Shown: positions 3,601 through 47,671 of the stretch, piece by piece
How positions within the stretch are numbered: position 1 is the stretch's first letter
How the letters are laid out: the number at the start of each line of letters is the position of its first letter
From: Somniosus microcephalus
Lineage: Eukaryota
Length of the DNA: 64,000 nt
Assembly (NCBI GenBank): GCA_052327205.1
Contig: CM126214.1
Span: forward strand, 174,778,001 to 174,842,000
Reading direction: 5' to 3'
The notes under the pieces: generated by a model
What the model was told of the DNA's origin: nothing
Database searches by the model: none
The model's input: only the letters and a program-made list of their open reading frames with translations
Translations under genes and position numbers: made by a program

Positions 3601-6372
3601 TTAATATATGTTAATCATGCTAAATTAAAGAGATAACACAGCCCTGAAATCCAAGAGTGACCCTTGTACCCGGTTTTCCCCCAGCTCTATATATTATGTT
3701 TAATTTTCGATGCTAGTGGTATCACCAGAATTGATTGTTGGATGGGAATCTCGTTACATTTGTGTAAGTTTACGATGCCGTCTTGATAAAGGGGCTAGAA
3801 AGGTGTTTCCCTGACAGCCCTGTGGGAATCGCAGTGCTGGAGCAATGGCAGGACTATTCACGGCGACCCTTAGCAAATCTGACCCCCAATATGTCCATAC
3901 CGCTGTAACGAAATGAGTAAGTATTGTCAGTGTACTGGAGCACTCGTTGCTAAATGTAACAGATGTATTGCTCATTCAAACGAGCTATCTTTCCAGTTAC
4001 ATGCGGACAATGCAGATGAATCTGTCGCGTTTGTGCAATGTATTAATTACAACGTTTTGTTCAAATCGTTCCTCTTTTTCGCCGCATTTTTTTCAGAACG
4101 AAACTCTCTTATTAACGTTGAAGGTTTCGGTAACTGTGATGGGAAACCCATTTCACCAATGTCCCGTGAAGGCTAAAACTGAAAAATAACTTCCTCCTAA
4201 GAGTAGTGCATTCTTAGCCCAGACCTTTACCTTACATCACTTGGGAAACGAGAGAATCTGCGGCTTTGCCCCCAAGACAATTGTAAAAAGCCCGCATTGT
4301 TTTTTTTTAAATTATATATAATTTATTCCAATTTTACCAGAAAGGCATATTTTTTTTAGTGAAAAATCCATTTTACATACAGAAAAGTTGGGTTTAAACG
4401 AAAGCGGGGGAAATGTGGCATGTTTCACTCGAATTGATTGCAAGTTCTTTTAAAATGAATTTTGAAAGTATTTTTCGTCGCCAGCGCGCACAAGTTATTT
4501 TCTGTAGCTCAGTGTGATGGTAAGGTTGTTACTGCAATGCATCTACTTTTAGATGTAATATTTATTAGAATAGCATTTAAATGACTATTATAAATGCATT
4601 TTCTGATAAAGCATTGAAATGGCATTGATACCAGTGACGGGCGCATCCCTTTTCAGAAGGTGGCTGGAAGCTATGCTTCCAGTGGCGAGTTGCTATGTCA
4701 AGCTCTCAAATGTCTCAGCTCCCACACGTCTGTAGCTTTTATTAGTCAATATCTGAACAAATCAAAGGAGGTGGGGGAGAATGGGACAAGACCAGGTCCT
4801 GGGGGCGCCGCCAAGTCTGTAACCAGGACAAAGAAAACGCTGCGGAATATATTTATTTAAAAAAAAAGAACCATCAGCCCTTGTCTCGTTATACAGTAAC
4901 TCATCTTTATTCGGCGAAGATTTTACAATCGAATAAAAATTAAGTCAGCCGAACCCCGCAAATTCGGGGGAAATATTTCTGAAGCAATAGAATTTTACTG
5001 AACGAGACACTCGTGTAGACAGTTTATTCTTAAAATACTATTTGAAAATGGTGAAACTAAAGGAGAGATTGACGTTGCAATTGTTTCAGATCCCTTGTTT
5101 TATGTGAAACGGTACCATCAATTAGATTAGACACGACTGTTCCGCCAATAGTTTTCATGCACCGTTCCAAAATCACCTACCAAATCGCGCCTTTCTTGCT
5201 CTCTTGGAGCAGGGAGCTTTGGATCATTTGCTTATTTATTGAATCTAGTTTATTTTCTGAGGCCTCGAGATTGCTGGGCCGACTGATTACCGTTTTCTTT
5301 TCTGATCAAATGCTCCTATTTCTTCTTTGTCCTCGTTCAATATACATTGATCGCACTTCACCTCCAAACACTGCTCATAAGTCAGCTGCACGCTCCCACT
5401 CCGCCTTCTCAACTGTTGACAAAATACCGCGCAAAAGAATCAATTAGGCAAATGGCAAAAGTCTACTCATTTGCTTCATAAGACGCCGATGAGGTTTTCG
5501 GAAATGTTCAGATATTTATAGATGGTTCAAATTAAACGGGTGCAGATTCTTTGCGAACAGCCATCCAACAAGGGGTGTGCGAGTGATATAAAAAATACAG
5601 CTTGCTTTACCTGAAAACTACAACCGCACAAAAAAGGGACATTCCCAGAAAGCTGCTGCTAGGTTAAATATATTGTCGCAAAACAACATACATATCTTAT
5701 ATACTGTGCGTGTAATTATTTACACGAGTATGTATATATGTATATAATATGTGTGTATTTGTGCATGTGTGTACAACAACAATTTGCATTTATATAGCGC
5801 CTTTAATGTAGTGAAACGCCCCCAGACATATATTAATATATGACTATATATGTATATAAAACTTCATAAGAAATTGTCAGTCACAAGTATATATTCTAAA
5901 ATGGGATCATGGGATAATGTTTGAAGAGACATTTACCGCCGGGCTTCCAAACGCTCTTTCAGTGTGTGTGCCCGCCCTCACTCACTCGGCCACTTCCCCA
6001 CCTGTGAGGCGCCATTGGTAAAGGATCACAGGTAACGTTTTATCCAAATGTCTTCTTGTGCTCAGATATTGGAGCTTGGATTTTTTTTTTGTCTAACGCT
6101 AAATTTTAAAGCTGACACTTGGGCGCCGATTGTGCGGCGTTTCCCTGTATCTGAACCATCGTTAAATGGCAATTCGATGCCTTTTGTTTTACACTTTTAC
6201 CAGTAATAAAACTATCGCTAAATATGCCCGTTTAAACGAACGGACGCCTAGCTACAAACAAAGTTTATAACTTTCACTTCCAAATAAAAACGATCGCGCA
6301 ATTTAAATACGGATACTACATAACACACACAATATTAGTGTCACCACAGCGCTTATATATTTTTAAATCCTG

Positions 6373-6478
6373 TTTCCCACATTACAACAGTGACTACACT
6401 CCAAAAGTACTTCATTGGTTATAAAGCGCTTTGAGATGTCCGGTGGTCGTGAAAGGCGCTATAGAAATGCAAGTCTTT
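6373..6478 (+). mobile_element. Deu-SINE 3' tail fragment
   Basis: cattacaacagtgactacact...aaagcgctttgagatgtcc...gaaaggcgctatagaaatgcaag, near-identical to 7770-7875. Confidence 0.8.
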
Positions 6479-7591
6479 ATATTGCGGAGTCCTTTCGAGT
6501 TAACTTGGCTATTTCTAGAAGTGCCGCTCTATTTAAATGCCCTGTGGGTTTCTAGAAGCAGTGTGATTGTGGTGTATAAATCAGTGGGGCGAACAGCTTG
6601 AATTCGCTAACATCGGAGATTGGCCATTAAGTCACTTCTTTATCCTAAAATTAAAACACAGCCAAAGATTTGTATTTGATCTTGGTCAGAACCCAACAGT
6701 AAACCAAAGATATATGCGAATCTGCTGTTTGGTAAGCGAAAGTGCATGACTTACAGAGACAGTCATAAGAGGAGGACAAAGGAAATCTTCAAAATTCAAA
6801 TGGGAATGTTCTGGGAATTGGGAGGTGTCTATCGGGCCAGTGAATGTGGGGCTGTATGAAGTCTTTCCAAGCATGGCCTGTAAAGGCCAACAGAGTTGCT
6901 CCTTTAAGGATAACCTCGGCTCTTCGCCGTCTACTTAGAACATCGGAAGGAATAGACAGATAGTAACATAGACACATAGGATTTTTTGAAATATAAAATC
7001 TCTTTATTTTCAAAGATAATTGACTCCTTTAGATCCTAACACCGACAGAGAGTTATAACAGACATTTAACTGTCCTTGGAATCTGAATTGCTTAAAATGT
7101 GTCAGTTTACAGCTTCAAAGTAGAGGCCACCAAAGAAGCCTTTCACTTTTGAAGAGTATTTGGTTTCTCCGACGTTCCTGGTTTCGATCCATTTGATAAA
7201 AGCTGGCCTTATTTATTTGATTAGTATATATCACTGCAAAGATGCGGGAAAGTTATCCGATCTATACAGTGTGAAGATATGGAGATCCCATAGACCGGCG
7301 AGACGGAGAATAAGATATTTATAGATACAGCACAGAGAATGAAACATCATTCAGATACCAGCACAGAGACTGAGTACAAATAGGCAGTAATACAGAATCC
7401 CCGTACATGGATCAGTACAGAGATGGAGACTCCAGAGAAACATCAATACAGCGAGTTGTTGTTGTATCTTCACTCTCTTTCTTTGGAGAATAGTATATGA
7501 CATAATGGAAGGATTTGTAGAATGATTAACAGTCTGACAGACCAGAATATGAATGCTCCTTCCATGGCTGCAACCATCTTAGTAGCTAGCT

Positions 7592-7880
7592 CTCTTATCA
7601 GGTGGACGTAAAAGATCCCATGGCACTATTTCGAAGAAGAGCAGGGGAGTTATCCCCGGTGTCCTGGCCAATATTTATCCCTCAATCAATATAACAAAAA
7701 AAAACATTATCTGGCCATTATCACGTTGCTGTTTGTGGGAGCTTGCTGTGTGCAAATTGGCTGCCGCATTTCCCACATTACAACAGTGACTCCACTTCAA
7801 AAAGTACTTAATTGGCTGTAAAGCGCTTCAGGGCGTCCGGGGGTCATGAAAGGCGCTATATAAATGCAAGTCTTTCTTTC
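7592..7880 (+). mobile_element. Deu-domain SINE, 5'-truncated
   Basis: caggtggacgtaaaagatcccatggcactatttcgaagaagagcagggg...aaggcgctatataaatgcaag. Confidence 0.85.
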
Positions 7881-8419
7881 TCTGGCAGGAGGTTGTTATG
7901 GACTCCCACAACCCATACAATGAGTATCCCACTGGATACCAATGCAGAATTCAGAGTTGGAACTCCAGTCTCCACTTACCAAGACTGTCTAGGTAGTGTT
8001 TGAACCCTGCACTTTTTAACTCAAAGGCGGGAATATGATGACTAAGCCAAAGGCTTGCTCTTAATACAGAGAGTGAAACTTCACAAAGACACTAACATAG
8101 TGAGTCAGAGTGTTACAGACAGTAGCACACAGAGAGAGTGAGAGACCCCATACAGAGAGTAGGACAGTAAGGTCTCAGAGAAACTCCATACAGATGCCAA
8201 TACAGAGTGACCCATAGATAACAATACAGAGAGAGAGAAAGACCCCATATAGACTCCAATATAAATAGATCCCAAATATAATCCAATAAAGACAGTAACA
8301 CTCCATAGAAATACCAATACAATGAGGCTTCATACATACATAAGTACAGAGAGTAACACTCCATGTACACACCAATATAGGGAGTGCAACATACTGACAC
8401 CAGTAGAAAGAATGAAGCC

Positions 8420-19709: not shown

Positions 19710-20238
19710 ATGTACCAAAGTCTAGCACTAGCAGCAAACCATGGACAAGCAAGCTATCCCCACGACGCTTCCGGTAACTTCATGCATTCTTCAACGGGCT
19801 CACCTGTGTATGTGCCCACAACTAGGGTCCCCTCCATGCTGCCCAGCATACCGTACCTACAAAACTGTGAATCGGCCCATCAGAGTCATCACCTGAGCAA
19901 TCACACAGGCTGGCCGCAACCAGGTACCGAAAGCTCCGGATTCAACCCCAGCAGCCCTCACCCTTCAACCACCTTCTCTTATTCTCACAGCCCTCCCATG
20001 AGCCACGGTGCTGGGAGGGATGCGGCTTATAGCAACCCTTTAGTCATCAGCGCTAGTGGCAGGGAACAATACGGCAATGCCCTGGTCAGGTCGGTCAATG
20101 GATCCTACTCCAGCCCATATCCTACCTATGTCGGCCCAGAGATGACTTCAGGCTGGCCACCTGGACCCTTCGAGAGCAGCATGATTCACAGTCTACAGGC
20201 CAGACAAGTCTCCATGTCTGGGAGGAGGTCCAGTCTGG
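19710..20238 (+). CDS. GATA5: GATA5 coding exon 1 (gene exon 2), N-terminal activation domain
   Basis: Translates MYQSLALAANHGQASY...SPVYVPTTRVPSMLPSIPYLQ, the GATA4/5/6 N-terminal motif. Donor G|GTAGGT at 20239, phase 1. Confidence 0.95.
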
Positions 20239-23200
20239 GTAGGTAACTGAAATCTATTTTCAAATGTGCCAAAAAGCAGGGAAACTGCTAAATAATCAAT
20301 AATGTTGCTTAATACCAATACATAAGTAATTAAAGTATTGAGCGGAAGAGCAACAGGTTACCTTATAAACCATCCCCTCTCCTCCAAGACGATTAACACT
20401 TGGGAGTAATATTTATCTGGTTACACCAAAAACGGGGTATTTCCATCTGCCTAAGCCAGGTTAGAACTTGGTTTTGAATCGCTGACAGTCCACGTGTGAT
20501 CAGAATTAGTGTCTCGGTCGAAGGGTATGATGATTATGACAAATATGGACAGCAGTGGAGGGCTGAGGCAATAAGGATGACCTCGGGGGCAACAGTGTAC
20601 CTAATGGCTTGAAATTACAGTCAGTATTTGATTTATCATACCCTTGGACTGTCATTTGTTTTAAAAATGGGCCACCTTTTCACCCGTTTTCGGCAGAAAT
20701 AGCCCGGGTTTTGTGATGACGATGAGCAATAGCTTCCACTCCGTATCATTCATCCGAAACTATTGTCCACTGACATCTGGTAATAGTGAAACTATTTCTA
20801 ACTTATGGCTTCAGTTCAGATAATCAGTTAAGGATGTCTTTCAAAGAATGTTCCATGTTCTATCCATTTGTCTTATCTAATCTGTTTCGTGCATATAGCT
20901 AGCGAAACTTAAGTTAAAAGATTCTCATTGAAATTAACAATGTCGTCACTAAAACCGGTCTATGCCTATATTCATTAGACTCTGTTAAGGGATAGGAAAT
21001 TTAAAAAAAATCAAGTTTATTATTTATTAATCCTCATTGTATTAATTGGATCATTTCGGTTACTTTTTTTTGCTCAAATATAATTGTACCGTTTTGACAA
21101 CTCGAATTGCATAGAGGTGTCGCAAGTGTAACCTGTATTCTACAATCGGCCAAACCATGCAAGTTAAGTCACCGCATTAACATTCATGTTATAAGTATGC
21201 AAATTACAAATAACTGTGAATCTCTGTCAAGCCTTGAAAGAAAATGTTTATTTTTGACAAAATGGGATTCACCCAACCAGACATTAACTGCAAACCTTTA
21301 AATTCTATTGGATGTTAAGGCATTACAGAGAATAATTTCGACCGTCTGTCGCCTCAATGATACTTTCAGTTTCTATATATTTCACTTTGATCTTTCTGCA
21401 ATGTATGGTTTCTCCCATTCCTTTCCACACCTAATGTATTGGTATATCTGTTTGACTGCACTGTTTCTGCGCGTGGCTTCTGTATATTCCAAGTAAGGGA
21501 CTAACCTGCCTTTGCTTCTTGCCAGGGGAGAAAGGTGTATGTTTGTGTTTCTAGCATTTGGCCAGTCCCCGGGGAAAATTGAGCTCCAGTTTAACTTTGT
21601 AGCAGTTAACTCAACTAAAAGCCCTTTTAGGCCTTTTATGTTTTCTAATTGAGCATTTGTTTAGCGCTTGTAATACATTTCATGGATATGAGGTAATCAA
21701 GACATTGCAAGAACAAGTGGGAAAGATCAAATCTACTTTATTCCTAGATTCCGCATTAGCAGCAAATAGAAACGTGCATGTTTCATTTCATGTACCTTTT
21801 GACTCAGCTAGATATTCCTATCTGTGCGGCATATTGAACTAAGCCTACAGCATCTGTCTAAAATATAGAGTTAATATTTAGGGATAACATGTTGAAATTA
21901 TCTTTCTGGAGTTGTGTTTACAACAAGAGGGTTTAAAATTCACTTTTATATACGGTGCATTGAAAGGAATAAAGGTTATAAGTTCGATCTGGAGACGTCC
22001 CTGTCATCGGCATATTAAAAATAATAATGCCTCATTTTATTCGGCGTTTTGCAATCCAGTTCGGAGCCTAAAGGGAGTTCTGAAGCAATAAAAATACCAA
22101 GGACAGTCAATTTGATTGGCTGGTATCATGCCTGTTTTACTCAAGTGTCTTTATCTCAACAGATATTCAGTCTAGAAAATGTAAGGCTGTAATTCATGTC
22201 ATTGTCTGATAGCATTGAACAATGGCGATTCGCTGGATCTGGACTCCTGGGTCAGTTTCTAACACTAAACAGTTTTGAGGATGTTTAAAGTAACATTCGC
22301 AATTTATGGTTTGTAAGCCTATTAAGCACTTTACTGGATCACATTAGCTCAGTGCAGACTCTTTAAAAAGTCTAGAAGTGCTCTGGCCCCATCTCCAAAA
22401 CAATCTACAAATACAGCCCCTTATTTACCACAGATGAAGAGAGAGACAGTGAAACTTGATCAACCATTCCAAGTATCAAACACACTTCATTACCTGCTAA
22501 TACTGAACGTCAACTTTAAAGCGTCATAGATCAGAATTAATGGAAGGGTTTGCACAGAGATTTTTTTTATTTTAACAGCCCATGGAAAAAAATGCACCAA
22601 AGATATACACACAATTAATATCTTTAAGTTATTCGATATTCAATTAATTAAATGATAAATGGGCACTGTGATAAGATTTCTCTATCAGGAGTTTTATATT
22701 AAGTGCAGTGGCTCAGATCTTATCCTTCAGACAGAGAGACAACGTTCACAGTCTCGATTTTTTTGTTCTAAATTTATTAATATGAATATTGCGTTCTACT
22801 GATTCAGAACATAGATTTACATTTCTAAATATATTTTCACATTCTTTTCGGTCTGCCCGCAGACTTTTAAAGATTCCCCTCCTAGCAATGTCCTGACTCC
22901 CAACACACACCCAAAGCTATTATTTTAAATACAAATTGGGTTCTCAACACTTGCCGCCAGCACCAATCTTATCAAGATTTTAAATTTGCTGCCCGCGGGA
23001 AAATGTTTTTCAATTGTCGAAAACATAAATATGCTGATATCATTTGGATCAGAGGACTTTGTATAACTCATAGTAAAACCATAGTAAGCAGTCAATTTCC
23101 CGTGAAATTCCTCTGGTAATCAATTTGATGCAAACTTTGCTTTCTGTAGAAGCAGCACTTAATCGGGAGTATAGGAGAATGGGAGATCAATTATTGAATC

Positions 23201-25005
23201 TGCTCCGTTTGAATAGATCCATAAACCGTTTTCTCTCTCTTTAAAAAAAAATTGCACAGCAACCGAGTGGGGGAAAGTATAAAAAGTTTTCTTTCTCTCT
23301 CCTTTATTATATATTTTTTATATATATATATAAGGGGTCTTGTTTACTGCACGTTTTGACATCGGCGGGAATAAATCCAGAATGTTGACCTGTTTTCCGT
23401 CTAAAGGCTGTCATTTGTCACCGAGTGCAATAGGTGTGATTGATAAATCGAGCAGTGGATCACAGAGCGTTCTGTAACACAAATGAGCATTCCATCAGTC
23501 TTGTGAGCCAGTCTCCCTGCCGCCACCAGTCAACATCCAAAAACACTTTGATGAAAAACGGGAAAGTTTGGCAAGGCATTATGATTTCTATCACCAACCC
23601 TCTTCCAAAAAAAAGCCTACAGTATAATCGTTTTTTCCTCTCCTTAGAAATTATTTGTGCCTTCTATTAAACCCTATTTTACAGTGTCTATGTAACAACG
23701 ACCTCCCATAACATTTGGATGCCATTTTTTTTTATCACAAGAAAATTTATCGTTTCCAGAATTGTTCCCTGCCACCAAAGTAACCACTAACTTGGATTGT
23801 CAGACATGTTTCAACCACACAACATACACATATATTTACAGTGTTAACATCAGATGTCTATCTTGGTCACAGTGTTGCATAGTTTCTCAATTTAAAAAAA
23901 AAAGTTTTCAAGGACGTTTCACCGTTTATTTGGAAAACATGCTGAAACGTATATTTCAGAGATGATTATCGTTATTACTGCTCATTGGAAGGGAAAGTCC
24001 AGACTGTTGTCTGAGATTCTGTGTGCCAAACCTTCGTCTTATTTCACAGGCAGGCAGTAAAAGCAAAGACTTATTCCTTCTCCTGCCATGTTCAGATCTC
24101 CTGTTTCCTCGTTTTATTCTAGAAACTTGTAATGTGCATCCTCTTACACAAACAAGCTTGTTCGTCTGTACAATGCCTGGAAAATAGCGCGATAGAGGCA
24201 CACGGGTACTCGAATTCGCTTTAGAATTAATAGGCTTGAATGGTAAAATTTGCCAATGGCCACTCTCTACCCCCGCCTTTCCCCACACTCCCTGATACAA
24301 CAGCGAATCCCCCTTATTGAGTCTTTATCGATTGAAATGTTGAACGAGTTGGAAAAAAACCCTATCTCGAATGCAACGGATAGCTCATTGAGTATAACAA
24401 AATATTTTATTTTTAATCTCATTTTTTTCAAATGACAGAAGGCAACTTTGGTGAAGGAATAAATGTAAAGATGTCCCGCGGGTAAATAAATATTAAAAAT
24501 GTTCACCAGAAATCATGGTGTAATCCGGGATAAGTATGTCAGGAATTTGCAGCGTTTGTTCTGACTGGTGCACAGAATGGATATGAAACGCGAGAGAGAA
24601 TCGTCTTTAATAGTATTTTTTTAGTGGGGTTAGAAATGAAACATCTCGACGCCTTTGCGAGTGGAACCGATGACGTGTAGCTGTTGGTAGAACATCCAAT
24701 AATAACCCAAGAATCGAAGTTAGGGTTCACATCTAAATGAAACAATTTTCCTTTTAATAATAGAGAATTGTGCTCAGTTTAAACTAATATGTTTCTCAAC
24801 CATGAAGTGAACGTAAGATAACATACTCCAGGACCGAGCAGGGCAATAAATAATATAATTTATTAGACGTGGAGCCATTTTTATTTTATTTCTTTAGAAC
24901 ACTTATTTAACAGGATGCATTTTTCTGACAGTCACAACTCTCTTGTATTATGCAAACCAGATGTCACTGATGTCTTCCTTTCCCCCCCTTTTTAAAAAAA
25001 AATAG

Positions 25006-25172
25006 AAATGTTGGAAGATTTCCCCGAGGGCCGCGAGTGTGTGAATTGTGGATCTATGTCTACTCCGCTCTGGAGACGGGATGGGACGGGCCATTATCTC
25101 TGCAACGCCTGCGGGTTGTATCACAAGATGAACGGGATGAACCGACCGCTCATTAAACCACAAAGGAGATTG
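25006..25172 (+). CDS. GATA5: GATA5 exon, N-terminal zinc finger
   Basis: Acceptor TAG 25003-25005. G+AA gives E, then [55 protein letters not shown]. Donor GTAAGC at 25173. Confidence 0.97.
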
Positions 25173-26272
25173 GTAAGCAGCCTGGTGGATCCGGGCTCAT
25201 CAAGAAATGTTCTGGCAGTGCCGAACCTCTCCCAAGCGCCACCCCTTTATCTCTCAAAAAACCCACTGTTTTTGTGAAGTTGAAGACCAGGCGCCCCCTT
25301 TCCACGCCGCCTCTTCTTCTCCACCCATATAAGGCCAAACTCCAGCAAAAATAAAAGCGCTTTGTTCCCGTTTGAATTTCCGTGATTATTTCAACGGATC
25401 ATCTTTCTGTTTTAAAAAAAAAGTGTGACTTCGCCCCTCCTTTTTACTGCAGTAATTTATTTACTGGTGGTCTGGATTGTAAATCAGAATAGAGATCAGA
25501 GCTTCATTGATTTTGGATGTGGAATCTGACAAGAAATTGACAACTGATGGTTGGGGTGGGGGTACTGACTAAACCTTCCATATTGTAACCAAATGCAGCA
25601 CAGCTTTATCTATTTCTCTTCTAGATTAAATGCAATTTACGTTGCACACTCCAATGCTTCAAAAATGTATTTAACTTTCTGTCCTTAATCACCATTCGGC
25701 GTAGAATGGTCTGCAAAACACACTCATAATTTTTATGTCTTAAATAACACTACATCACAATGTTGGGGGTCAACAACTTCCTTGACAAGGTCAGAGTTGT
25801 GAAGAGGCGCCCTTCAGAGGCCCATTCCCCATTCTGAATAAACTACTTAGGCCTTGACGATATAAATTATTTTAGCCTTGTGCCTTTCAATAAGCAAGAG
25901 GGGAACCTTGATCCTTTATCTCAGTGCGAAAACAACACGCACACTTGTGACTGGGCTCATTTCTTTGGCAAAACCTATTTTAGCCGGCGTTGTATATTCT
26001 AATAGTTGATACCATGCAAGTTCAAATTTAGCACTTCTACAAACTGGCCGGTTCCTTTCTCGAAATTGAACATACGGCAATGACACAATGAGAGAAATAA
26101 AGAGCGAGTGAAACACTTTAATACATTATAATAAAATCATTAGATATGTATGTATCCGTGTATAGATATATAGTTATATATACAGTAACACTAAATGCTA
26201 TTGACAGCCGGGGAGGAATCATGAATATGAAATGTTAAATTGCAGCCATAAAAAAGCATGTTGCCACTTGTT

Positions 26273-26904
26273 AAACATAGAAGCTAGGAGCAGGAGTAGG
26301 CCATTCAGCCCCTCGAGCCTGCTCCGCCATTTAATGAGATCATGGCTGATCATCAAAATTCAGTACCCTGTCCCTGCTTTCTCCCCATATCCCTTGATCC
26401 CTTTAGCCTTAAGAAATATATCTAACTCCTTCTTGAATATATTTAATGAATTGGCCTCAACTGCCTTCTGTGGTAGAGAATTCCACAGGTTCACCACTCT
26501 CTGGGTGAAGAAATTCCTCCTCATCTCAGTCCTAAATGGCTTACCCCTTATCCTTAGACTGTGACCCCTGGTTCTGGACTCCCCGACCATCGGGAACATC
26601 CTTCCTGCATCTAGTCTGTCTAGTCCTGTTAGAATTTTATAAGTCTCAAAGAGATCCCCTCTCATTCTTCTAAACTCTAGCGAATATAAGCCTAATCGAC
26701 CCAATCTCTCTTCATATGTCATTCCTGCCATCCCAGTTATCAGTCTGGTGAATCTTCGCTGCACTCCCTCCATGGCAAGAACATCCTTCCTCAGTTAAGG
26801 CGACCAAAACTGCACACAATACTCAAGGTGTGGTCTCACCAAGGCCCTGTACAACTGCAGCAAGACATCCTTGCTCCTGTACTCGAATCCTCTCGCTATG
26901 AAGG
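26273..26904 (-). mobile_element. CR1-type LINE 3' end in a GATA5 intron
   Basis: ORF 26360-26773 MEGVQRRFTRLI...LYSLEFRRMRGDL...FFTQRVVNLWNSLP is the CR1 ORF2 C-terminus, followed by the tail. Confidence 0.92.
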
Positions 26905-26969
26905 AGGTTGCAGCGGTGCTATACTGTTAAGAAATATAATAACTGCATAGCTCATCATAATAAATATAG

Positions 26970-27185
<216 letters not shown>

Positions 27186-28009
27186 TAATAGACCCGATGA
27201 GACAACATGCTGTGAACTGATTAAAGGCAAAAATATAAACATTACACCAGTGTTAGTATCACTTCTATATCACCACCAGTCTTAAAAGTTCTTTAATGCA
27301 CTATTATTTTAAATAGGAGAAACTAAAACTTGTTAAATAGAAACTGTAATGTCCAGCAAACCATTCTCTCTTCTCCACTCAATCACAAGTGAGAGAAAAA
27401 TCAGAGTCCATGTTTTTCGGACTACTTCCAATTACAAATCATAGGCTGGCCGCACCCTGTGCTGCTTTTATTCCAGTGTTGAAGTGATCCCTCAGAACAG
27501 TAGTTAATAGGTAAATGATATTAGATAAAACTCAAGTGAATCCCAGACTCCACACCTGCCTCTGAGTTCATTATTTCATTTGGTTATGTGGCTATTTAAT
27601 AAATGAACTTTGTTCTGTAGCTTTCGGTGAGGTCACCCAGCTTTCAGTCACTAAGTTATCTGGAAGTTGTTCATCAGTAGTCATAAGCAAAGTTGTCGAC
27701 ATTGGGGAAATGATAGGAATGACGTTTACAATCAACAAGTGTAAACCAGTTTGCAAACAAATTTCAATACGTGGAGTTATGTTAACCTCTGGGGTGACGT
27801 ACTTAAAAATTGGTCATATTTCCAAAAGAGTGATTGTTAATTCTACTTGGCAGGTTCTCATAAATTCAGTTTGGATTAACTTTTTTTAAAATAAATTTAG
27901 ATTTAAATCACAGCAAAGATTTGAACTATAAATTTCAGGAAGGCATTATGCCCTGTCCCACATTACAGACTGATTCATACGGTATGTGTCCATGACATAG
28001 CTGCAAAAG

Positions 28010-28985
28010 TATTAGGCTGGGTTGATGTGTGGCTGAAAGGCAGACAGCAAAAATGGTAGTTCATGGGAGATGTCAGAATGGAAACTAGTTGCCATGAAGT
28101 CCCACAGGGGTCAGTGTTGTTTATAATTTTCATAAATTAAATAGAATTACAATAAGTGACTTAGAAGACAGAATATTGTCTTAAATTTGTGGATGACACC
28201 AAACTGAATGGAATGACTCGTGAAGCTAATCAATGTGTGATAATCCAAAGGGATCTAGATCCATAAGCAGAGAGGTGGTAGATGGAGTTCAACATGTATA
28301 AGTGGGAAGTCATGAGATTAGGTGAAAGAAACAAGAATATGGATTACGTAATAACTCTTCTTAAAGTAACCAAGGGGGCTAGGTTATTAAAACGTTGGTT
28401 CAGTGTTTAAAGGTGGTGAAGAAAACAAATAAAATATATAGCTAGAGGTGTGACTTACAAGCAAAAAGAAGTGATATTGAAGTTGTCATAGCTGACCTTG
28501 GTGAGGCCACATCTGAAGTACTGTGTTGAATTTTGATCTCCATATTAAAAGAAAAAGGGAGACTTATTGGAAAGAGTTCAGAGGAAGGTTACAAGGTTGA
28601 TTCCTGAACTCCGAGGCTGAGTTGTGAGGAAAGTTTTGTCTACTGAGATTCTTTACTTTCTGGACAGGAGAATGATGCGAGGAGACTTGATTGAGGGCTT
28701 TCAGGTTTAGATCGAGGGAAGTTCTTCTGTCAAGTGCAGGGTTTAAGGATTATGGGGCACAGTTTTAAGGGGGGCAAAAATAGGAAATTTAGGCAGCCTT
28801 TTTTGTGAGAGGGTGTTTGAAAAGATCATCAGTGGCAGCAGTGGAACAAAAATCCATGGCAGATTATAAAACCGGATTAAATGAATTGTTATTAGGAAAG
28901 GGGGAAGAAAGCCTTAGGTAAGGAAACTGATTGAAGATGTGGAAGGAAGACTAATGATCTCCTCCACCCAAAAGAATGCTATGTT
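28010..28985 (+). mobile_element. Old, degenerate CR1 RT fragment
   Basis: Remnants VPQGSVL (gtcccacaggggtcagtg), KFVDDTKL, LVRPHLKYC and RVQRKVTRLIP, with many indels. Confidence 0.75.
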
Positions 28986-29203
28986 ACTACAGACAGTGCA
29001 GAGGCACCAACACTGATGGTAGATCAAAGGAGAACTCTTACCTCTTGTAGTTTTGGCATATACTACACAACTTGACATTGGTATCAGGCTGGTAGAAACA
29101 GCCTGATGTGAATCTCCTGATATTTTCCAGTAAGCTGAAAAATGCAGTGAAAGTGTCAGGAAGATAACTTAATACCTATCAATGCTTCAACAGAAGTAGA
29201 AAA

Positions 29204-32200
29204 AGAAAGAACAAAATTGCATTAATATAGCACCTTATCATGCCCTCATGATGCATCACATCACTTCACAAGTAAGTAATGACTTTTGAAGTCTAGTTAC
29301 TACTGGTAAGTAGTTAAACACAGTAGACAATTGGTGCACAGCATGGTTCCACAAAAAGCAAAGGGAATACATTTCTCGTTTTGGTGCTGAAGGGGTGAAG
29401 GTTAGCCAGGACATCAGGAGAACTCTCGGCTCTTCTACAAAATGTGCCATGGGATCTTTTATTGCCGCTGGAACAGGTAGACACAGCCTTGGCTTAATAT
29501 TTATCTATAAGACAGCACCGCTGACAATGCAGTTTCAAAGTGATGTGCTCATGTCTTGGAGTAGAGCTTGAACCCATAACCTCCTCACATCTTGGAGTAG
29601 GGATTGAACTGTTAACCTCCTCATGTCTTGAAGTAGGGCTCTAACCCATAACTTCCTCACACCTTGGAGTAGGGCTCGAACCCATAACTTCCTCACACCT
29701 TGGAGTAGGGCTCGAACCCCATAACCTCCTCACGCCTTGGAGTAGGGCTCAAACCCATAACCTCCTCACACCTTGGAGTAGGGCTTGAACCCATAACCTC
29801 CTCACACCTTGGAGTAGGGCTTGAACCCATAACCTCCTCACACCTTGGAGTAGGGCTCGAACCCATAACCTCCTCACACCTTGGAGTAGGGCTCGAACCC
29901 ATAACCTCCTCACACCTTGGAGTAGGGCTCAAACCCATAACCTCCTCACACCTTGGAGTAGAGCTTGAACCCATAACCTCCTCACACCTTGGAGTAGGGA
30001 TTGAACCCATAACCTCCTCACACCTTGGAGTAGGGCTTGAACCCATAACCTCCTCACACCTTGGAGTAGGGCTTGAACCCATAACCTCCTCACACCTTGG
30101 AGTAGGGCTTGAACCCTTAACCTCCTCACACCTTGGAGTAGGGCTTGAACCCATAACCTCCTCACACCTTGGAGTAGGGCTTGAACCCATAACCCCCTCA
30201 CACATTGGAGTAGGGCTCGAACCCATAACCTCCTCACACCTTGGAGTAGGGCTCGAACCCATAACCTCCTCACACCTTGGAGTAGGGCTTGAACCCATAA
30301 CCTCCTCACACCTTGGAGTAGGGCTTGAACCTATAACCTCCTCACACCTTGGAGTAGGGCTTGAACCCTTAACCTCCTCACACCTTGGAGTAGGGCTCGA
30401 ACCCACAACCTCCTCAAACCTTGGAGTAGGGCTCGAACCGATAACCTCCTCACACCTTGGAGTAGGGCTCGAACCCATAATCTCCTCACACCTTGGAGTA
30501 GGGCTCGAACCCATAACCTCCTCACACCTTGGAGTAGGGCTCGAACCCATAACCTCCTCACACCTTGGAGTAGGGCTTGAACCCATAACCTCCTCACACC
30601 TTGGAATAGGGCTTGAACCCATAACCTCCTCACACCTTGGAGTAGGGCTTGAACCGATAAGCTCCTCACACCTTGGAGTAGGGCTTGAACCCATAACCTC
30701 CTCACATCTTGGAGTAGGGCTTGAACCCATAACCTCCTCACGCCTTGGAGTAGGGCTTGAACCCATAACCTCCTCACACCTTGGAGTAGAGCTTGAACCC
30801 ATAACCTCCTCACACCTTGGAGTAGGGCTTGAACCCACAACCTCCTCACACCTTGGAGTAGGGCTCGAACTGTTAACCTCCTCACACCTTGGAGTAGAGC
30901 TTGAACCCATAACCTCCTCACACCTTGGAGTAGGGCTCAAACCCATAACCTCCTCACACCTTGGAGTAGGGCTTGAACCCATAACCTCCTCACACCTTGG
31001 AGTAGGGCTTGAACTGTTAACCTCCTCACACCTTGGAGTAGGGCTCAAACCCATAACCTCCTCACACCTTGGAGTACGGCTTGGACCCTTAACCTCCTCA
31101 CACCTTGGAGTAGGGCTCGAACCCATAACCTCCTCACACCTTGGAGTAGGGCTCAAACCCATAACCTCCTCACACCTTGGAGTAGGGCTTGAACTGTTAA
31201 CCTCCTCACACCTTGGAGTAGGGCTTGAACCCATAACCTCCTCACACCTTGGAGTAGGGCTTGAACCCATAACCTCCTCACACCTTGGAGTAAGGCTTGA
31301 ACTGTTAACCTCCTCACACCTTGGAGTAGGGCTCAAACCCATAACCTCCTCACACCTTGGAGTAGGGCTCGAACCCATAACCTCCTCACACCTTGGAGTA
31401 GGGCTTCAACTCATAACCTCCTCACACCTTGGAGTAGGGCTCGAACCCTTAATCTCCTCACACCTTGGAGTAGGGCTTGAACCCTTAACCTCCTCACACC
31501 TTTGAGTAGGACTTGAACCCATAACCTTCTCACACCTTGGAGTAGGGCTTGAACCCATAACCTCCTCACACCTTCGAGTAGGGCTTGAACCCATAACCTC
31601 CTCACACCTTGGAGTAGGGATCGAACCCATAACCTCCACACACGTTGGAGTAGGGCTCAAACCCATAACCTCCTCACACCTTGGAGTGGGGCTTGAACCC
31701 TTAGCCTCCTCACACCTTGGAGTAGGGCTTGAACCCATAACCTCCTCACATCTTGGAGTAGGGCTTGAACCCATAACCTCCTCACACCTTGGAGTAGGGC
31801 TTGAACCCATAACCTCCTCACACCTTGGAGTAGGGCTTGAACCCATAACCTCCTCACACCTTGGAGTAGGGCTCAAACCCATAAACTCCTCACACCTTGG
31901 AGTAGGGCTTGAACCCATAACCTCCTCACACCTTCGAGTAGGGCTTGAACCCATAACCTCCTCACACCTTGGAGTAGGGCTTGAACCCATAAGCTCCTCA
32001 CACCTTGGAGTAGGGCTTGAACCCATAACCTCCTCACATCTTGGAGTAGGGCTTGAACCCATAACCTCCTCACACCTTGGAGTAGGGCTTGAACCCATAA
32101 CCTCCTCACACCTTGGAGTAGGGCTTGAACCCATAACCTCCTCACATCTTGGAGTAGGGCTTGAACCCATAACCTCCTCACACCTTGGAGTAGGGCTTGA

Positions 32201-35200
32201 ACCCATAACCTCCTCACACCTTGGAGTAGGGCTTGAACCCATAACCTCCTCACACCTTGGAGTAGGGCTTGAACCCATAACCTCCTCACACCTTGGAGTA
32301 GGGCTTGAACCCATAACCTTCTCACACCTTGGAGTAGGGCTTGAACCCATAACCTCCTCACACCTTGGAGTAGGGCTCGAACCCATAACCTCCTCACACG
32401 TTGGAGTAGGGCTCAAACCCATAACCTCCTCACACCTTGGAGTAGGGCTTGAACCCATAACCTCCTCACACCTTGAAGTAGGGCTTGAACTGTTAACCTC
32501 CTCACACCTTGGAGTAGGGCTCAAACCCATAGCCTCCTCACACCTTGGAGTAGGGCTCAAACCCATAACCTCCTCACACCTTGGAGTAGGGCTTGAACCC
32601 ATAACCTCCTCACACCTTGGAGTACGGCTTGAACCCTTAACCTCCTCACACCTTGGAGTAGGGCTCGAACCCATAACCTCCTCACACCTTGGAGTAGGGC
32701 TCGAACCCATAACCTCCTCACACCTTGGAGTAGGGCTTGAACTGTTAACCTCCTCACACCTTGGAGTAGGGCTCGAACCCATAACCTCCTCACACCTTGG
32801 AGTAGGGCTCAAACCCATAACCTCCTCGCACCTTGGAGTAGGGCTTGAACTGTTAACCTCCTCACACCTTGGAGTAGGGCTCAAACCCATAACCTCCTCA
32901 CACCTTGGAGTAGGGCTTGAACCCATAACCTCCTCACACCTTGGAGTAGGGCTTGAACCCATAACCTCCTCACACCTTCGAGTCGGGCTTGAACCCATAA
33001 CCTCCTCACACCTTGGAGTAGGGATCGAACCCATAACCTCCTCACACCTTGGAGTAGGGCTTGAACTGTTAACCTCCTCACACCTTGGAGTAGGGCTTGA
33101 ACCCATAACCTCCTCACACCTTGGAGTAGGGCTTGAACCCATAACCTCCTCACACCTTGGAGTAAGGCTTGAACTGTTAACCTCCTCACACCTTGGAGTA
33201 GAGCTCAAACCCATAACCTCCTCACACCTTGGAGTAGGGCTCGAACCCATAACCTCCTCACACCTTGGAGTAGGGCTTCAACTCATAACCTCCTCACACC
33301 TTGGAGTAGGGCTCGAACCCTTAACCTCCTCACACCTTGGAGTAGGGCTTGAACCCTTAACCTCCTCACACCTTTGAGTAGGACTTGAACCCATAACCTT
33401 CTCACACCTTGGAGTAGGGCTTGAACCCATAACCTCCTCACACCTTCGAGTAGGGCTTGAACCCATAACCTCCTCACACCTTGGAGTAGGGATCGAACCC
33501 ATAACCTCCACACACGTTGGAGTAGGGCTCAAACCCATAACCTCCTCACACCTTGGAGTGGGGCTTGAACCCTTAGCCTCCTCACACCTTGGAGTAGGGC
33601 TTGAACCCATAACCTCCTCACATCTTGGAGTAGGGCTTGAACCCATAACCTCCTCACACCTTGGAGTAGGGCTTGAACCCATAACCTCCTCACACCTTGG
33701 AGTAGGGCTTGAACCCATAACCTCCTCACACCTTGGAGTAGGGCTCAAACCCATAACCTCCTCACACCTTGGAGTAGGGCTTGAACCCATAACCTCCTCA
33801 CACCTTCGAGTAGGGCTTGAACCCATAACCTCCTCACACCTTGGAGTAGGGCTTGAACCCATAAGCTCCTCACACCTTGGAGTAGGGCTTGAACCCATAA
33901 CCTCCTCACATCTTGGAGTAGGGCTTGAACCCATAACCTCCTCACACCTTGGAGTAGGGCTTGAACCCATAACCTCCTCACACCTTGGAGTAGGGCTTGA
34001 ACCCATAACCTCCTCACACCTTGGAGTAGGGCTTGAACCCATAACCTCCTCACACCTTGGAGTAGGGCTTGAACCCATAACCTCCTCACACCTTGGAGTA
34101 GGGCTTGAACCCATAACCTCCTCACACCTTGGAGTAGGACTCGAACCCATAACCTCCTCACACGTTGGAGTAGGGCTCAAACCCATAACCTCCTCACACC
34201 TTGGAGTAGGGCTTGAACCCATAACCTCCTCACACCTTGAAGTAGGGCTTGAACTGTTAACCTCCTCACACCTTGGAGTAGGGCTCAAACCCATAGCCTC
34301 CTCACACCTTGGAGTAGGGCTCAAACCCATAACCTCCTCACAGCTTGGAGTAGGGCTTGAACCCATAACCTCCTCACACCTTGGAGTACGGCTTGAACCC
34401 TTAACCTCCTCACACCTTGGAGTAGGGCTCGAACCCATAACCTCCTCACACCTTGGAGTAGGGCTCGAACCCATAACCTCCTCACACCTTGGAGTAGGGC
34501 TTGAACTGTTAACCTCCTCACACCTTGGAGTAGGGCTTGAACCCATAACCTCCTCACACCTTGGAGTAGGGCTTGAACCCATAACCTCCTCACACCTTGG
34601 AGTAGGGCTCAAACCCATAACCTCCTCACACCTTGGAGTAGGGCTCGAACCCATAACCTCCTCACACCTTGGAGTAGGGCTTGAACCCATAACCTCCTCA
34701 CACCTTGGAGTAGGGCTCGAACCCTTAACCTCCTCACACCTTGGAGTAGGGCTTGAACCTTTAACTTCCTCACACCTTTGAGTAGGACTTGAACCCATAA
34801 CCTCCTCACACCTTGGAGTAGGGCTTGAACCCATAACCTCCTCACACCTTCGAGTCGGGCTTGAACCCATAACCTCCTCACACCTTGGAGTAGGGATCGA
34901 ACCCATAACCTCCTCACACGTTGGAGTAGGGCTCAAACCCATAACCTCCTCACACCTTGAAGTGGGGCTTGAACCCTTAGCCTCCTCACACCTTGGAGTA
35001 GGGTTTGAACCCATAACCTCCTCACATCTTGGAGTAGGGCTTGAACCCATAACCTCCTCACACCTTGGAGTCGGGCTTGAACCCATAACCTCCTCACACC
35101 TTGGAGTAGGGCTGGAACCCATAACCTCCTCACACCTTGGAGTAGGGCTCGAACCCATAACCTCCTCACACCTTGGAGTGGGGCTTGAACCCATAACCTC

Positions 35201-35386
35201 CTCACACCTTCGAGTAGGGCTTGAACCCATAACCTCCTCACACCTTGGAGTAGGGCTCGAACCCTTAACCTCCTCACACCTTGGAGTAGGGCTTGAACCC
35301 ATAACCTCCTCACACCTTGGAGTAGGGCTATGAACCCATAACCTCCTGACTCAGAGATGAGAATGCTACCACCGAGCCAAACTGAC
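29204..35386 (-). mobile_element. tRNA-derived Deu-domain SINE (SacSINE1-like) containing the internal 36-bp array
   Basis: Minus-strand head gtcagtttTGGCTCGGTGGtagcattctcatctctgagtcaggaggttatgGGTTC at 35386-35330. Deu core (aaagatcccatggcac, rc at ~29444-29460) and L2-like tail (gtgctatattaatgc, rc at ~29218) lie left of the array. Confidence 0.85.
29550..35347. repeat. 36-bp tandem array, ~160 copies, unit CCTCCTCACACCTTGGAGTAGGGCTTGAACCCATAA
   Basis: Directly visible. About 5.8 kb / 36 bp. Recurrent variants (ctcga, ctcaa, ctgtt, ccctt). Confidence 0.99.
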
Positions 35387-36527
35387 TGAAGTCTGTAACT
35401 CAGTTCCCTAAGAGATCACATTCACTTCAGATTATCCAGAGCACGTCTTTGCGATTGAAAGTTTAAATGGGCTTTAATGTAGATTTAAAGCATGTGTTTT
35501 TTTTTGGAGGTGCCAAGTTCTTCTATGTGTGTCAGAGGATATACGGTATTATGTAATCTCACCTTAGTTTATTTTGATTTTTAATATGCATCCTTATTAT
35601 GAAAACAGAATACAGAAAATATATCCTCCATTCTCTGAGTCTGATCTTGAAAACAGAACACTTCAATATATAATTCTTAAAGTAGATTAATATTAAGTAT
35701 TAAGAAATGTTACATTCAAAGTAAAATCACTGAACACTAACAGTAGAAAATAGAAAATCAGCCATTAATTCCAACAAATTGTCCAAACATTGACCCATCT
35801 CATACATACATGTTCCTGTTTGCAAACCTTGCTCAAGTTGTATTGAAAATGAATGTATATTGGTTAGATCTGCCAATATTATTTATGTATAATTGTGTAA
35901 TTGTTCCACAAAAAATGATACAAAATTGTAATGAACAGAACCTCAAAACTTTGTTACATCAATACACCAGTAACCATAGAAGTAGCTTCCTGTAAATATC
36001 AGAAGGGTTATCACAGATTGACATGGTGCAAGGAGCGCTATGACAGTTACTGAACCCTGATACATTTGAAAGGGTATTGGGAACAGGTATAGCTGAAAGA
36101 AATGAGCCCCAACTGTACCCACTGTTAACCATAGATGTTCATAATCAGTATCTAGATAACATTTCCAGCACTCTTAATATATTAATATGCCTCAGAATGT
36201 GAGTAACATATATTGAAAATTTAATCTTTTTTTAAATTGTAAAGACAGTTTACATCTACCAGTTCCATAGGGAGATTTTTGTTGCTCATCTGTGTTGATC
36301 TGAACCTTAATAGGTGTGAAAATCCAAGCATCTCCAGGGCACAAAACAGAACAATCAACGAGTGACCATTTGGAGCGGGTTCCACTGAACCTAAAACAAA
36401 ACCACAACATATTTGGTTTTAATCTTGATTCAATGTCGTACTTGGTGCAGCATGCAAAGTAATATCCAATAATTTGTTTTATATATAGGATTGGAGTCAC
36501 AGTTTGTATTGTGTTTTTATCTGGCAG

Positions 36528-36615
36528 GTACCACGCCCACTGGCCATGAAGAAAGAAAGTATCCAGACAAGAAAAAGGAAACCTAAGAATGTTAACAAAT
36601 CCAAAGGTTCCTCAG
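36528..36615 (+). CDS. GATA5: GATA5 exon, basic/NLS region
   Basis: Acceptor ctggcag. Translates [29 protein letters not shown](G). KESIQ distinguishes GATA5 from GATA4/6 (KEGIQ). Donor GTTCGT at 36616. Confidence 0.95.
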
Positions 36616-37869
36616 GTTCGTGGATTACTCGTGCTCTTATTTTTATTAATCCAGTTATTTGCATCCACTCTTTTTTAGGTTTCCCTGTGCTATCCATCCA
36701 GTCTATTACCAAGAAGAAGGTCAGATGGCCAATACCAAGCCAATGGTGCTGGCCAGTAGGAGCAGTGTACTGGGGAAGTGTCTTGCTTTCTCTAGACATG
36801 TAAGAGGTTATAGGCACAAAAACTGTGTCTTCTCACTGTCTGGTACCGTGTGTTGGTGCAGAACGCACTGTACCACCACACTGCGGCATGGTTCTCTCCC
36901 GGTAGAATAACATTGTGCCACAACATTTTCTCAGAATGATGCCTCTGTCCAAGTGTTCTGCCATATTTACCCCTCTCCAAAAGTAATTGTTCTTAATGGT
37001 CTTGAATTCCCCATTCCTCTTGCGTTACCAGTCTGCTTTCTATTTGATTAAATATGTAATAATACATATGTACTAAAGGAATCTCATGCTTCCACATTAA
37101 TGCTGCCTCTGACCTCAAATGTGTGCAAAGCAGCCAGCAGCATACTTCCCCCTAAGCCTCCCATCATTTGCCTGGATCACTCAAAAGAGTCTGAGATACA
37201 GTGGAAATAATGTGTAGCCAGTCAGACATTTGTTAATGTTGAAAAGAGTGAAGAATGGGAACTTATGGTGACCGAAGAAAGAAAGAACATTTAAGCATTT
37301 AAGAAGGTGTTGGAGTGCATAGTATCTTTTTAAGGTGAAGAATGAAATAAAACATGCAGAAAGGGGTTGGGTTCAAACATACCTCAAGAAAATCCAATCT
37401 TATAACTTATCAAACCAAGGATGGATATTTTCATATCTTTTTTAATATAAGAAGGATACTCCCAAACAACTTAGAGAAAGCAGATCTTTTCTAAAACCCA
37501 CTAGCAATTGATTTTTTTTGATAGGCCCTATGATCTAAACACTATTGCTACCATGCCTCCAGCTATAATTAATATTGCTGCAACTTCGCTGGGGTAAATT
37601 TTGAGAGCTTGGATTTGATAACGGGTGAATACCTAATCCGTGTACATGGAAACATGTAAAAAGTTTTTTTCTTGCTTGAGATGACGGGATTGTTTAATAC
37701 TATAGTAGCCCGTCACTATATGCAATCAGTTTAGAAATCTCACTAACGATAGTGCCAAGATTGTCTTGTGACTGCTTCAGGGAACATTTTACTGTTGTGT
37801 ATTTCAGTCGGGTACAAAACAATATTCGTCCCTGCTCCTAATTAATTGTTATGTTGCCAGATTGATTTA

Positions 37870-38190
37870 GTTGCTAGCACTTGTGCCTTCTTGAATCAGA
37901 ACGTTGTGGATTTAAGCCCCAGTTGAGCGCATAATCTATGCTGAGAAATCCGTGCAATATCGAAGGGAGTGCTGAATTGTTGGCGTTACTCTCTTCCATG
38001 GTACTATTTGAATAAGAACAGGGTTTTTTTTTTGCTGATGTCCTGCCCAAGATTCCTGCTTCAACCAACGCCACCAAAACAACTAGTTAATCATTCATCT
38101 CATTTGCTGTTTGTCAGGTCTTGCTATATGCAAAATTGGCTGCCAATGTGCACTTCAGAAATAATTCATTGGATGGGAAGAGCTTTTCCA
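37870..38190 (+). mobile_element. Degenerate Deu-SINE with tRNA-like head
   Basis: tagcacttgtgcctt..gaatcagaacgttgtggatttaagcccc..gagcgcataatc..gggagtgctg..caaaattggctgcc. Confidence 0.6.
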
Positions 38191-38422
38191 CAATGGATAA
38201 GAAAATTCGACGCAGTGTAAAATGGACCGCCGATTCGCTAACAGCCCATTTTGCGCGACAGGCTTTGACCAATTTGATCCCCCGATAATTTGCTGCAGAA
38301 ATGCCAGTTCTTTCTACATTAATTGAAATAAGATTTCAAGAATCAACTGAGGCTTAATTATCTTTGTTATAGTTCATACTGCTAATAAGCTGAATTAATT
38401 ACCAAATTCTGTTTTCTTTAAG

Positions 38423-38547
38423 GCACAACTTCGGGAACCAACTCCCCATCTTCTATATCGAACTCTGAAAATGCATCAACTATTAAAACTGAATCTGATC
38501 TGGCCTCCTCTCCATATGCAGGTCAAACAGTAGTGTCCGTTTCTCAG
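38423..38547 (+). CDS. GATA5: GATA5 exon, Ser/Thr-rich C-terminal region
   Basis: Acceptor ttttctttaag, phase compatible with the previous exon. Translates TTSGTNSPSSISNSENASTIKTESDLASSPYAGQTVVSVSQ. Donor CAG|GTAAAG at 38548. Confidence 0.88.
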
Positions 38548-38903
38548 GTAAAGTAACGAGGAATTGTAACGTCCTTTTGTATTTAATCTAATCAAACATA
38601 ACCTGAGAATTGATTATTTAGAAGTTGGAGTAAAATAAGCAATTAACTGATTCTTTATACATGATAATTGAACAATTCTTAAAGTAATTATTGAATTTAG
38701 TTTCATTTATGGATTTAATACATATAAAAAAACAAAATATGAAAACATGATTGCAGAACAGCAATTTTACAGTTATATAATAAACAACATATTTATTTAA
38801 AAATGCAACAAACACACTTTAGTTGGAAAGGGATAAGTGTAAATATTGTACATAATTTCTTGCGTTACTATTGGAATAAGTTTAGTGATTCTTATTTCTG
38901 TAG

Positions 38904-39068
38904 GCTCCACCCACAGCAATGATAAGCCGAGAAGACTTGAACCCTGGTCCTTCACAGTTGAAATACGTAACTGAAGATTATTCTTATACCTCAGCCAGTG
39001 TGATCCCACAGACTGGAGTTAATGTTCCACTCAGACAAGACTCTTGGTGTGCCTTGGCACTGGCATAA
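38904..39068 (+). CDS. GATA5: GATA5 last coding exon
   Basis: Acceptor tttctgtag. Translates APPTAMISREDLNPG...LRQDSWCALALA*, the conserved GATA5/6 C-terminus. The summed CDS is 1200 nt = 399 aa + stop. Confidence 0.93.
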   Translation, partial: APPTAMISREDLNPGPSQLKYVTEDYSYTSASVIPQTGVNVPLRQDSWCALALA

Positions 39069-46774: not shown

Positions 46775-47132
46775 ACCATTTGACAGTGGCACTCACACTT
46801 GAGAAGTGCTGCACTGTCGGAGGTGCCGTCTTTCAGACAAGATATTAAACCGAGGCCACGCCTGCCCTCTCAGGTGGGTGTAAAAGATCCCATGGCACTA
46901 TTTCAAAGAAGAGCTCTCCTTGACATCCTGGCTAATATTTATCCCTCAACAAATGCCTAAAAAAAACCATTATCACATTGCTGTTCGTGGGATCTTGCTG
47001 CGTGTAAATTGGCTGCCGTGTTTCCTACATTATAACAGTGACTACACTTCATAAAAGTACTTCATTGGATGTAAAGTGCTTCAGGACATCCTGAGGTCGG
47101 GAAAGTTGCTATATAAATGCAGGTTTTTCTTT
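46775..47132 (+). mobile_element. Deu-domain SINE
   Basis: gtgctgcactgtcggaggtgccgtctttcag...aaaccgagg...gtaaaagatcccatggcactatttc...gctatataaatgcagg. Confidence 0.88.
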
Positions 47133-47671
47133 TTATTGGACATATTTTACAATCACCAAATTGCAATTTGATTTATCTATTTCTGCAGAAAAATGCATGC
47201 ACTCTGTTCTGTTTACTTTTGGACAACTGACACTTTCCTTAACGCACATGAAAAGAAAGGCAGAATGTAAGATATAGTGAAAGTACCTGAATTTTATTAA
47301 ATTATGGAGTGATGCAGCTGAATGTGTCTTGTTTGTTTTGCTTTCTCTAAGCTTTTCATACATGTCCCATAATACTATGAGCTCCCTCAATTTACAAAGT
47401 AGCACCTAGGTGGCTGCACAAATCTGTGCTTATATCTGTTGTTAACCCTCATGTACCTGTCAGAGCCAGGTGTTTAGTGCTGGAGTTGGTGTGGACACCT
47501 TGCCTTCCACAGCGGCACCTACTGTCACTTCTGTAGGGTTATATGATGGCTCAGAACTGCTATTTATGTGACTGCCAACTGGCAGCTTTTGTGCTAGTCC
47601 CCAAATGCTACCGTTGAAGGACATTGCTCATCATGATGAGAATTCTGCATAACCAGAGCATATATCACAAG

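Follow-up and report, generated by a model that had tools for sequence, protein, structure and literature searches.

The GATA5 locus and its intronic array

The 64-kb stretch of Somniosus microcephalus DNA analysed here (the window; positions 174,778,001 to 174,842,000 of contig CM126214.1, assembly GCA_052327205.1, numbered below from its first letter) carries a GATA5 gene, one intron of which contains a long tandem array of a 36-bp unit lodged inside a single short interspersed element (SINE). Judged from its sequence, the gene is the GATA5 of a cartilaginous fish: the first coding exon (178 aa) matches Pfam GATA-N, the next two match GATA fingers, and the top 11 homologues are chondrichthyan GATA5 proteins at 78-96% (best 96%, Heptranchias), with non-chondrichthyan proteins at no more than 69% among the 120 matches listed of 296. 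Searches by tblastn with three chondrichthyan GATA5 proteins place six coding exons on the plus strand from 19710 to about 39068 (19710..39068), with the frame intact and without a break. At the acceptor of the first zinc-finger exon (24991-25005), a run of A directly precedes the TAG and the pyrimidine tract lies farther upstream, an unusual arrangement; the frame agrees with the homologues.

The host intron (27147..36527, 9381 nt, or 3621 nt without the 160 full units of the array) is flanked by the second zinc-finger exon (27021..27146, plus strand) and the basic-region exon (36528..36615, plus strand), as an earlier annotation made from the sequence alone (the original prediction) had placed it. 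The array makes up 61% of this intron, begins 2.4 kb from the donor, ends 1.2 kb from the acceptor and runs antisense to GATA5. Tandem Repeats Finder (TRF) reports it as a single array at 29555-35347 with a period of 36, 160.9 copies and 93% matches, and finds no second array of the same kind in the window. Parsed on the minus strand, it consists of 160 full 36-bp units running from 35311 to 29551 (29551..35311), preceded by one 37-nt head-side unit (35312..35348). Unit spacing is 36 in 158 of 159 cases and 37 in the remaining one, where a full unit has an extra G. The 160 units average 96.1% identity to their consensus and 93.2% to one another, and 46 are identical to the consensus. The sequence of the window contains no N.

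The array is poor in CpG (55 in all, observed/expected 0.15, with 0.12-0.19 across the array region). CpG-rich domains with ratios of about 0.6-0.9 lie at 14000-26000, covering the 5' part of GATA5, and upstream at 2000-8000.

A tRNA-type SINE split by the array

The array separates the head of one SINE from its body, both on the minus strand and placed on either side as the order of a SINE requires. The head (35349..35386) contains an A-box-like 11-mer at 35369-35379, recognised by its sequence, spacing and motif match, which agrees with TRGYTYARTGG (PMC3245943) at 10 of 11 positions, the conserved A being a G. The body and tail lie at 29195..29550. With the array collapsed, head and body form an element of about 437 nt, for which nhmmer detects three sisters elsewhere in the window (E = 1.9e-31, 1.9e-25 and 9.2e-6), all on the plus strand: one consisting of the body only (46780..47135), one truncated at its 5' end (7590..7885) and one reduced to the tail (6370..6480). 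None of the three has a head or an array. Three further nhmmer matches (E 0.8-9.7) were set aside as weak; a weak match to the SINE head at 7987-8051 on the minus strand (E 0.88) is possibly another decayed head.

The host body is 67-74% identical to the sister copies, which are 82-87% identical among themselves. Because the array units still share 93% pairwise identity, this divergence points to an old copy holding a young array, and the SINE probably decayed long before the array grew. ARAGORN finds no tRNA gene, and Rfam gives no tRNA match at E up to 10 on 35270-35420, as is expected for a decayed copy. No target-site duplication is evident by eye. The element nevertheless has what defines a tRNA-derived SINE, namely A- and B-boxes at tRNA spacing, dispersed copies and no coding capacity, so that the SINE origin proposed in the original prediction, with the array lying between the head and body of one element, stands.

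The family label SacSINE1/Deu is likely for this element. SacSINE1, known from sharks, rays and chimaera, is a tRNA-derived Deu-SINE 463 bp long (PMC2746220, PMC5499810), and the two share, in a comparison by description rather than by alignment to a consensus, a tRNA-type head with both boxes at tRNA spacing, a similar length (about 437 versus 463 bp), several dispersed copies, a simple-repeat tail and an elasmobranch host; they differ in the internal 36-bp segment, amplified 161-fold here. Deu matches of SacSINE1 start at 124-134 (PMC5499810), and part of the body here, around element position 118-185, looks by eye like the Deu-bearing rows for the bivalve BivaMD-SINE1 (PMC4824008 supplement).

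A second dispersed repeat family (5756-5825, 8429-8568, 55262-55491, 56563-56767 and 61692-62136) has an end that resembles the tail of the array SINE.

B-boxes and T-box octamers in the unit

Each unit corresponds to about tRNA positions 40-70 and carries one B-box. This identification follows from the A-box-like 11-mer, which starts 43 nt before the first B-box, that of the head-side unit, itself interrupted by a 1-nt insertion; 43 nt is the spacing between A-box and B-box starts expected in a tRNA. Across the window GGTTCRANNCC is matched 116 times, each time within the array and on the minus strand, compared with 0.9 expected from shuffles. As the units are copies of one another, this count measures the amplification of one event and does not amount to 116 independent pieces of evidence. 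The strict consensus is present in 116 of the 160 units, and the bases contacted by TFIIIC together with R57 in 126; the contacted G57 occurs in 32, and GTTCRAWTC, the human motif of SINEs bound by RNA polymerase III (Pol III), in none. Thus, where some 160 tandem B-boxes with a tRNA T-arm had been proposed, the array of 160 units and the B-box identity of the unit hold, while the number of intact boxes is smaller and the T-arm is degenerate. In the tRNA register the consensus pairs at four of five T-stem positions, one of them a G-T wobble; 123 units keep four pairs and three units have all five. A single unit folds no better than shuffles (z = -0.2 as DNA, -1.0 as RNA), and a tRNA gene or structured RNA was rejected on the ARAGORN and Rfam results.

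C56 is lost in 24 units. In 21 of these it has become T, always beside G57 (21 TG, no TA), which fits past deamination of a methylated C, possibly in one event that was then copied. At positions 56-57, 103 of the 160 units read CA instead of CG. Selection on the B-box is not visible, since its positions carry as many variant alleles as the others: counting distinct alleles rather than copies, there are 9 disruptive alleles at 9 B-box positions and 20 at 19 other positions (permutation P = 0.46). The test is a weak one and demonstrates no constraint.

The junction between two derived units (see below) reads TCACACCT on the plus strand, a perfect match to the T-box consensus (PMC5494305), and it occurs 140 times in the array. 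The ancestral unit tail differs from the consensus unit at three bases, all of them inside this octamer, a derived state. The octamer appears by chance in 0.15% of shuffled units, and any of 12 regulator motifs in 3.4%. Variants within it are not depleted either (9 alleles at 8 positions, P = 0.65), and the unit holds no partner motif drawn from the 12-motif list.

Five perfect T-box octamers also lie outside the array, at 23432, 28446 and 36312 on the plus strand and at 43545 and 44352 on the minus strand, all within or just after GATA5. With 2.1-2.3 expected, their number is not significantly raised (P = 0.06-0.08). One of them, at 36312, shares the intron of the array and stands about 200 nt before the acceptor.

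Growth of the array

The body-side end of the array preserves its early history. Among the four terminal units (157-160, 29551..29694, minus strand), 158 and 160 end in bases that continue into the SINE body and thus show the ancestral tail, which lacks the T-box site. An intermediate tail is present in unit 159 and in seven other units, and 139 of the 160 units have the derived tail. The duplication junction joins two T-x-AG words that lie 36 nt apart, a weak microhomology.

A higher-order structure is superimposed on these units. Units 8-124 (30848..35059) are about three copies of a block of 39-52 units (units 8-46, 47-98 and 99-124; 98-99% identical). An offset of 52 units yields 19 informative matches, whereas no shuffle out of 1000 gave more than 11, and at this offset 11 consecutive units are identical. 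Across the 64 units aligned between blocks, identity is 98.9%, with 26 of 2304 bases differing and 15 whole-unit gaps. Private unit types are concentrated towards the ends of the array: the 20-unit blocks there (the first and the last two) hold 7, 9 and 8 of them, and the five middle blocks 1-2 each. Together with the block pattern, this distribution suggests a minisatellite that turns over by unequal exchange.

We propose that the GATA5 intron received, in antisense orientation, an old tRNA-headed SINE that was probably of SacSINE1/Deu type and that later decayed, as its divergence from the sister copies indicates. A 36-bp stretch covering the variable loop, the B-box and the first bases after it may then have been duplicated in place, probably through replication slippage at the T-x-AG microhomology. 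The terminal units show that the unit tail afterwards changed in two steps and that the altered unit took over the array. Unequal exchange or conversion may later have copied the blocks of about 40-50 units.

Several other candidate properties of the unit and array were rejected. Hairpin-driven slippage received no support from folding, as none of six DNA folds beat shuffles (z = -0.7 to +2.3) and three RNA folds gave z = -1.4 to +0.2. G-quadruplex potential is marginal (G4Hunter window maximum 1.28, mean 0.24 on the G-rich strand). Array frames are free of stops because the period is 36 bp; of two frames scanned for a coding role, one has no Pfam match and the other has two matches without a passing stretch, which we read as repeat artefacts. 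One array frame, compared with proteins of 132-420 aa as a proxy for arrays elsewhere, found no match, a result that is uninformative about other arrays. Potential cryptic splice sites, of which each sense unit has one GT and two AG, look poor by eye.

Comparison with known systems

An architecture of this kind has been described in squamates, where SINE-derived satellites (sSats) were reported across 56 genomes (Vassetzky et al. 2023, PMC10702118). In snake sSat3 the unit is 67 nt long and includes box B; sSat loci reach 320-950 units with up to 94% similarity and alternating subvariants; a genome has many loci sharing a unit, with a bias towards subtelomeric sites; a minor form retains both SINE termini around the repeats, and short internal SINE duplications of about 30 nt are cited there as known. 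The shark array shares with snake sSat3 a tandemly repeated internal SINE segment, a box B in the unit, units numbering in the hundreds, a homogeneity like that of long sSat loci (about 91-94% similar), alternating subvariants and both SINE termini, the last being the minor form there. Its unit is a head-to-tail segment shorter than its parent (36 bp in about 437 nt), with far more than the minimum of at least four middle units, terminal units that continue into the SINE on both sides, and a homogeneity of 93% pairwise and 96% to the consensus. At 36 nt the unit falls outside the sSat length range of about 67-290 nt, a range that is descriptive and not a formal criterion.

The differences lie in the elasmobranch host, the shorter unit with almost no body sequence in it, the position in an intron of a developmental gene, and the single locus, rather than a family, seen in 64 kb. 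Whether sSats are confined to squamates was left open by the authors who described them (PMC10702118). By its sequence, the array belongs to a kind already known from squamates, which this cartilaginous-fish case with a shorter unit would extend; the original prediction guessed the origin correctly and left the kind unnamed. Among titles and the openings of abstracts, which leave most subscription papers and the repeat databases uncovered and do not establish absence from print, we found neither a SINE-derived satellite nor a tandem B-box array from an elasmobranch, and the available text of two shark genome papers (PMC10620051, PMC10468316) makes no mention of such a satellite.

Two other systems offer partial parallels. 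Extra-TFIIIC (ETC) sites and TFIIIC-bound SINEs share with the array B-boxes without a usable A-box (PMC3245943, PMC7014570). The tandem-repeat enhancers repressed by MORC3 share a large homotypic motif cluster near a plausible target gene (PMC13373173); the array differs from them in its motif (T-box, 140 copies, versus up to 61 there), its SINE origin and in being known from sequence alone.

Interpretation

We consider it probable, at roughly 0.72, that the array is a recently expanded SINE-derived minisatellite without selected function, evolving neutrally. This reading follows from the lack of depletion of variants, whether at B-box positions (P = 0.46) or in the T-box octamer (P = 0.65), from the loss of C56 in 24 of 160 units, from the same architecture in squamates and from the intact GATA5 frame. 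The array would be spliced out with its intron, and its length probably varies between individuals. GATA5 is most likely little affected by it, and binding of TFIIIC or T-box factors, if any, would be incidental.

Several observations weigh against neutrality. With 39 alleles over 36 positions, the power of the allele test is low, and selection may not yet be visible in so young an array. The DNA ordered in the complex with the TFIIIC module tauB is 35 bp (PMC11811891), so that one complex could fit on each 36-bp unit, and 126 of the 160 units keep the TFIIIC-contacted bases and R57. CpG methylation could not block the 103 units with CA at positions 56-57. Finally, a tandem repeat that multiplies a single motif can be a genuine enhancer (PMC13373173).

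On present evidence, the array extends SINE-derived satellites from squamates to cartilaginous fish and keeps a readable history at one locus, with an ancestral terminal unit, an intermediate, a swept unit and block duplications. It could also serve as a naturally occurring test of whether multimerised B-boxes suffice by themselves to bring vertebrate TFIIIC to chromatin, the C56 variants being built-in controls. Should the T-box or TFIIIC cluster prove active, the locus would be a regulatory element made by amplifying a fragment of a transposon promoter inside a conserved developmental gene. In the fullest version of that idea, which we regard as unlikely, a three-base change and amplification turned a dead SINE promoter fragment into a new cis-element, with 140 T-box sites alternating with about 120 B-boxes every 36 bp in GATA5, itself a target of T-box factors; the number of copies would adjust GATA5 output or intragenic contacts in the endoderm or heart of sharks, and minimal B-box arrays might form a genome-wide elasmobranch family.

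Each half of this idea can be considered separately, and we judge the two about equally unlikely. The first is that the array, through its 140 T-box sites, acts in endoderm or heart as a homotypic enhancer of GATA5 whose strength is tuned by length, or that such an enhancer is actively repressed. In zebrafish, Ta/Tbx16 and Eomesa bind near gata5 and regulate it, and double knockdown of Ta and Tbx16 lowers its expression (PMC5494305); the three ancestral-to-derived changes all fall inside the octamer; the octamer has the low shuffle chance given above (0.15%, or 3.4% across the 12 motifs); and a tandem-repeat enhancer at IFNB1 with 45 PU.1 sites provides a precedent (PMC13373173). However, the octamer was noticed post hoc, the 12 motifs having been chosen by ourselves, its variants are not depleted, the unit has no listed partner motif, and a neutral sweep of one unit type gives the same pattern. 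The precedent itself is qualified, as only 2 of 53 MORC3-restricted repeats changed neighbouring genes (PMC13373173). We think an enhancer of this kind improbable.

The second half is a function suggested in the original prediction, a dense TFIIIC landing pad serving as a boundary or loop anchor inside GATA5, which we likewise think improbable. Its premise, that B-boxes alone bind TFIIIC, is borne out in vitro, where tauB shows strong affinity for the B-box without an A-box (PMC11811891). In fission yeast, TFIIIC unaccompanied by Pol III marks boundaries, and in mouse it is found together with cohesin (PMC3245943); few CpGs in the array are open to methylation. What the array itself contributes is the presence of the motif, with no sign of constraint on it (P = 0.46), the contacted G57 in only 32 of 160 units, no match to the motif of Pol III-bound SINEs and a C56-to-T change that has spread to 21 units; C56-to-G lowers the affinity of yeast TFIIIC 370-fold (PMC11811891). 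The TG variants, confined to units with G57, fit past methylation, possibly as one copied event. Very few genomic B-boxes are bound in vivo: in mouse embryonic stem cells, whose SINEs run to hundreds of thousands, only 2233 extra-TFIIIC sites were detected (PMC3245943), and TFIIIC binds a subset of Alus in a manner dependent on ADNP (PMC7014570). An insulator in the middle of a gene would, moreover, more likely hinder than help. Occupancy of the array by TFIIIC, taken apart from function, has a better though still minority chance, and occupancy alone would not establish function.

It is highly improbable that Pol III still starts at the SINE head and transcribes the whole array into a 5.9-kb RNA antisense to the GATA5 intron: the A-box matches at 10 of 11 positions and the first minus-strand run of four T lies at 29442, 5944 nt from the head, but the A-box has lost its conserved A, an insertion disrupts the first B-box, the next starts 80 nt after the A-box start (a gap of 69 nt, versus 30-67 bp in PMC11811891), and few SINEs are Pol III-bound in vivo (PMC3245943). 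An assembly artefact in the length or block repeat of a real array is just as remote. The long near-identical blocks, with their 11 identical units in a row at an offset of 52, would fit one, but the blocks differ at the bases and whole-unit gaps counted above and show the turnover pattern, and there is only one 1-nt indel in 160 units and no N in the window.

Other features of the window

A further dispersed repeat is present in three copies with 73-77% identity (26274-26891, 47678-48506 and 60291-61148) and has a weak reverse-transcriptase match in one frame (E = 2e-4); the copies are probably fragments of a long interspersed element (LINE). The region 8000-14000 is purine-skewed and CpG-poor; at 13050-13453 it contains tandem repeats that are short (25-31 bp) and degenerate. 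Two inverted repeats lie at 52495-52590 (GC-rich, about 96 nt) and 53285-53319, and a (CCT)12 microsatellite, preceded by CCA repeats, occupies 49406-49441.

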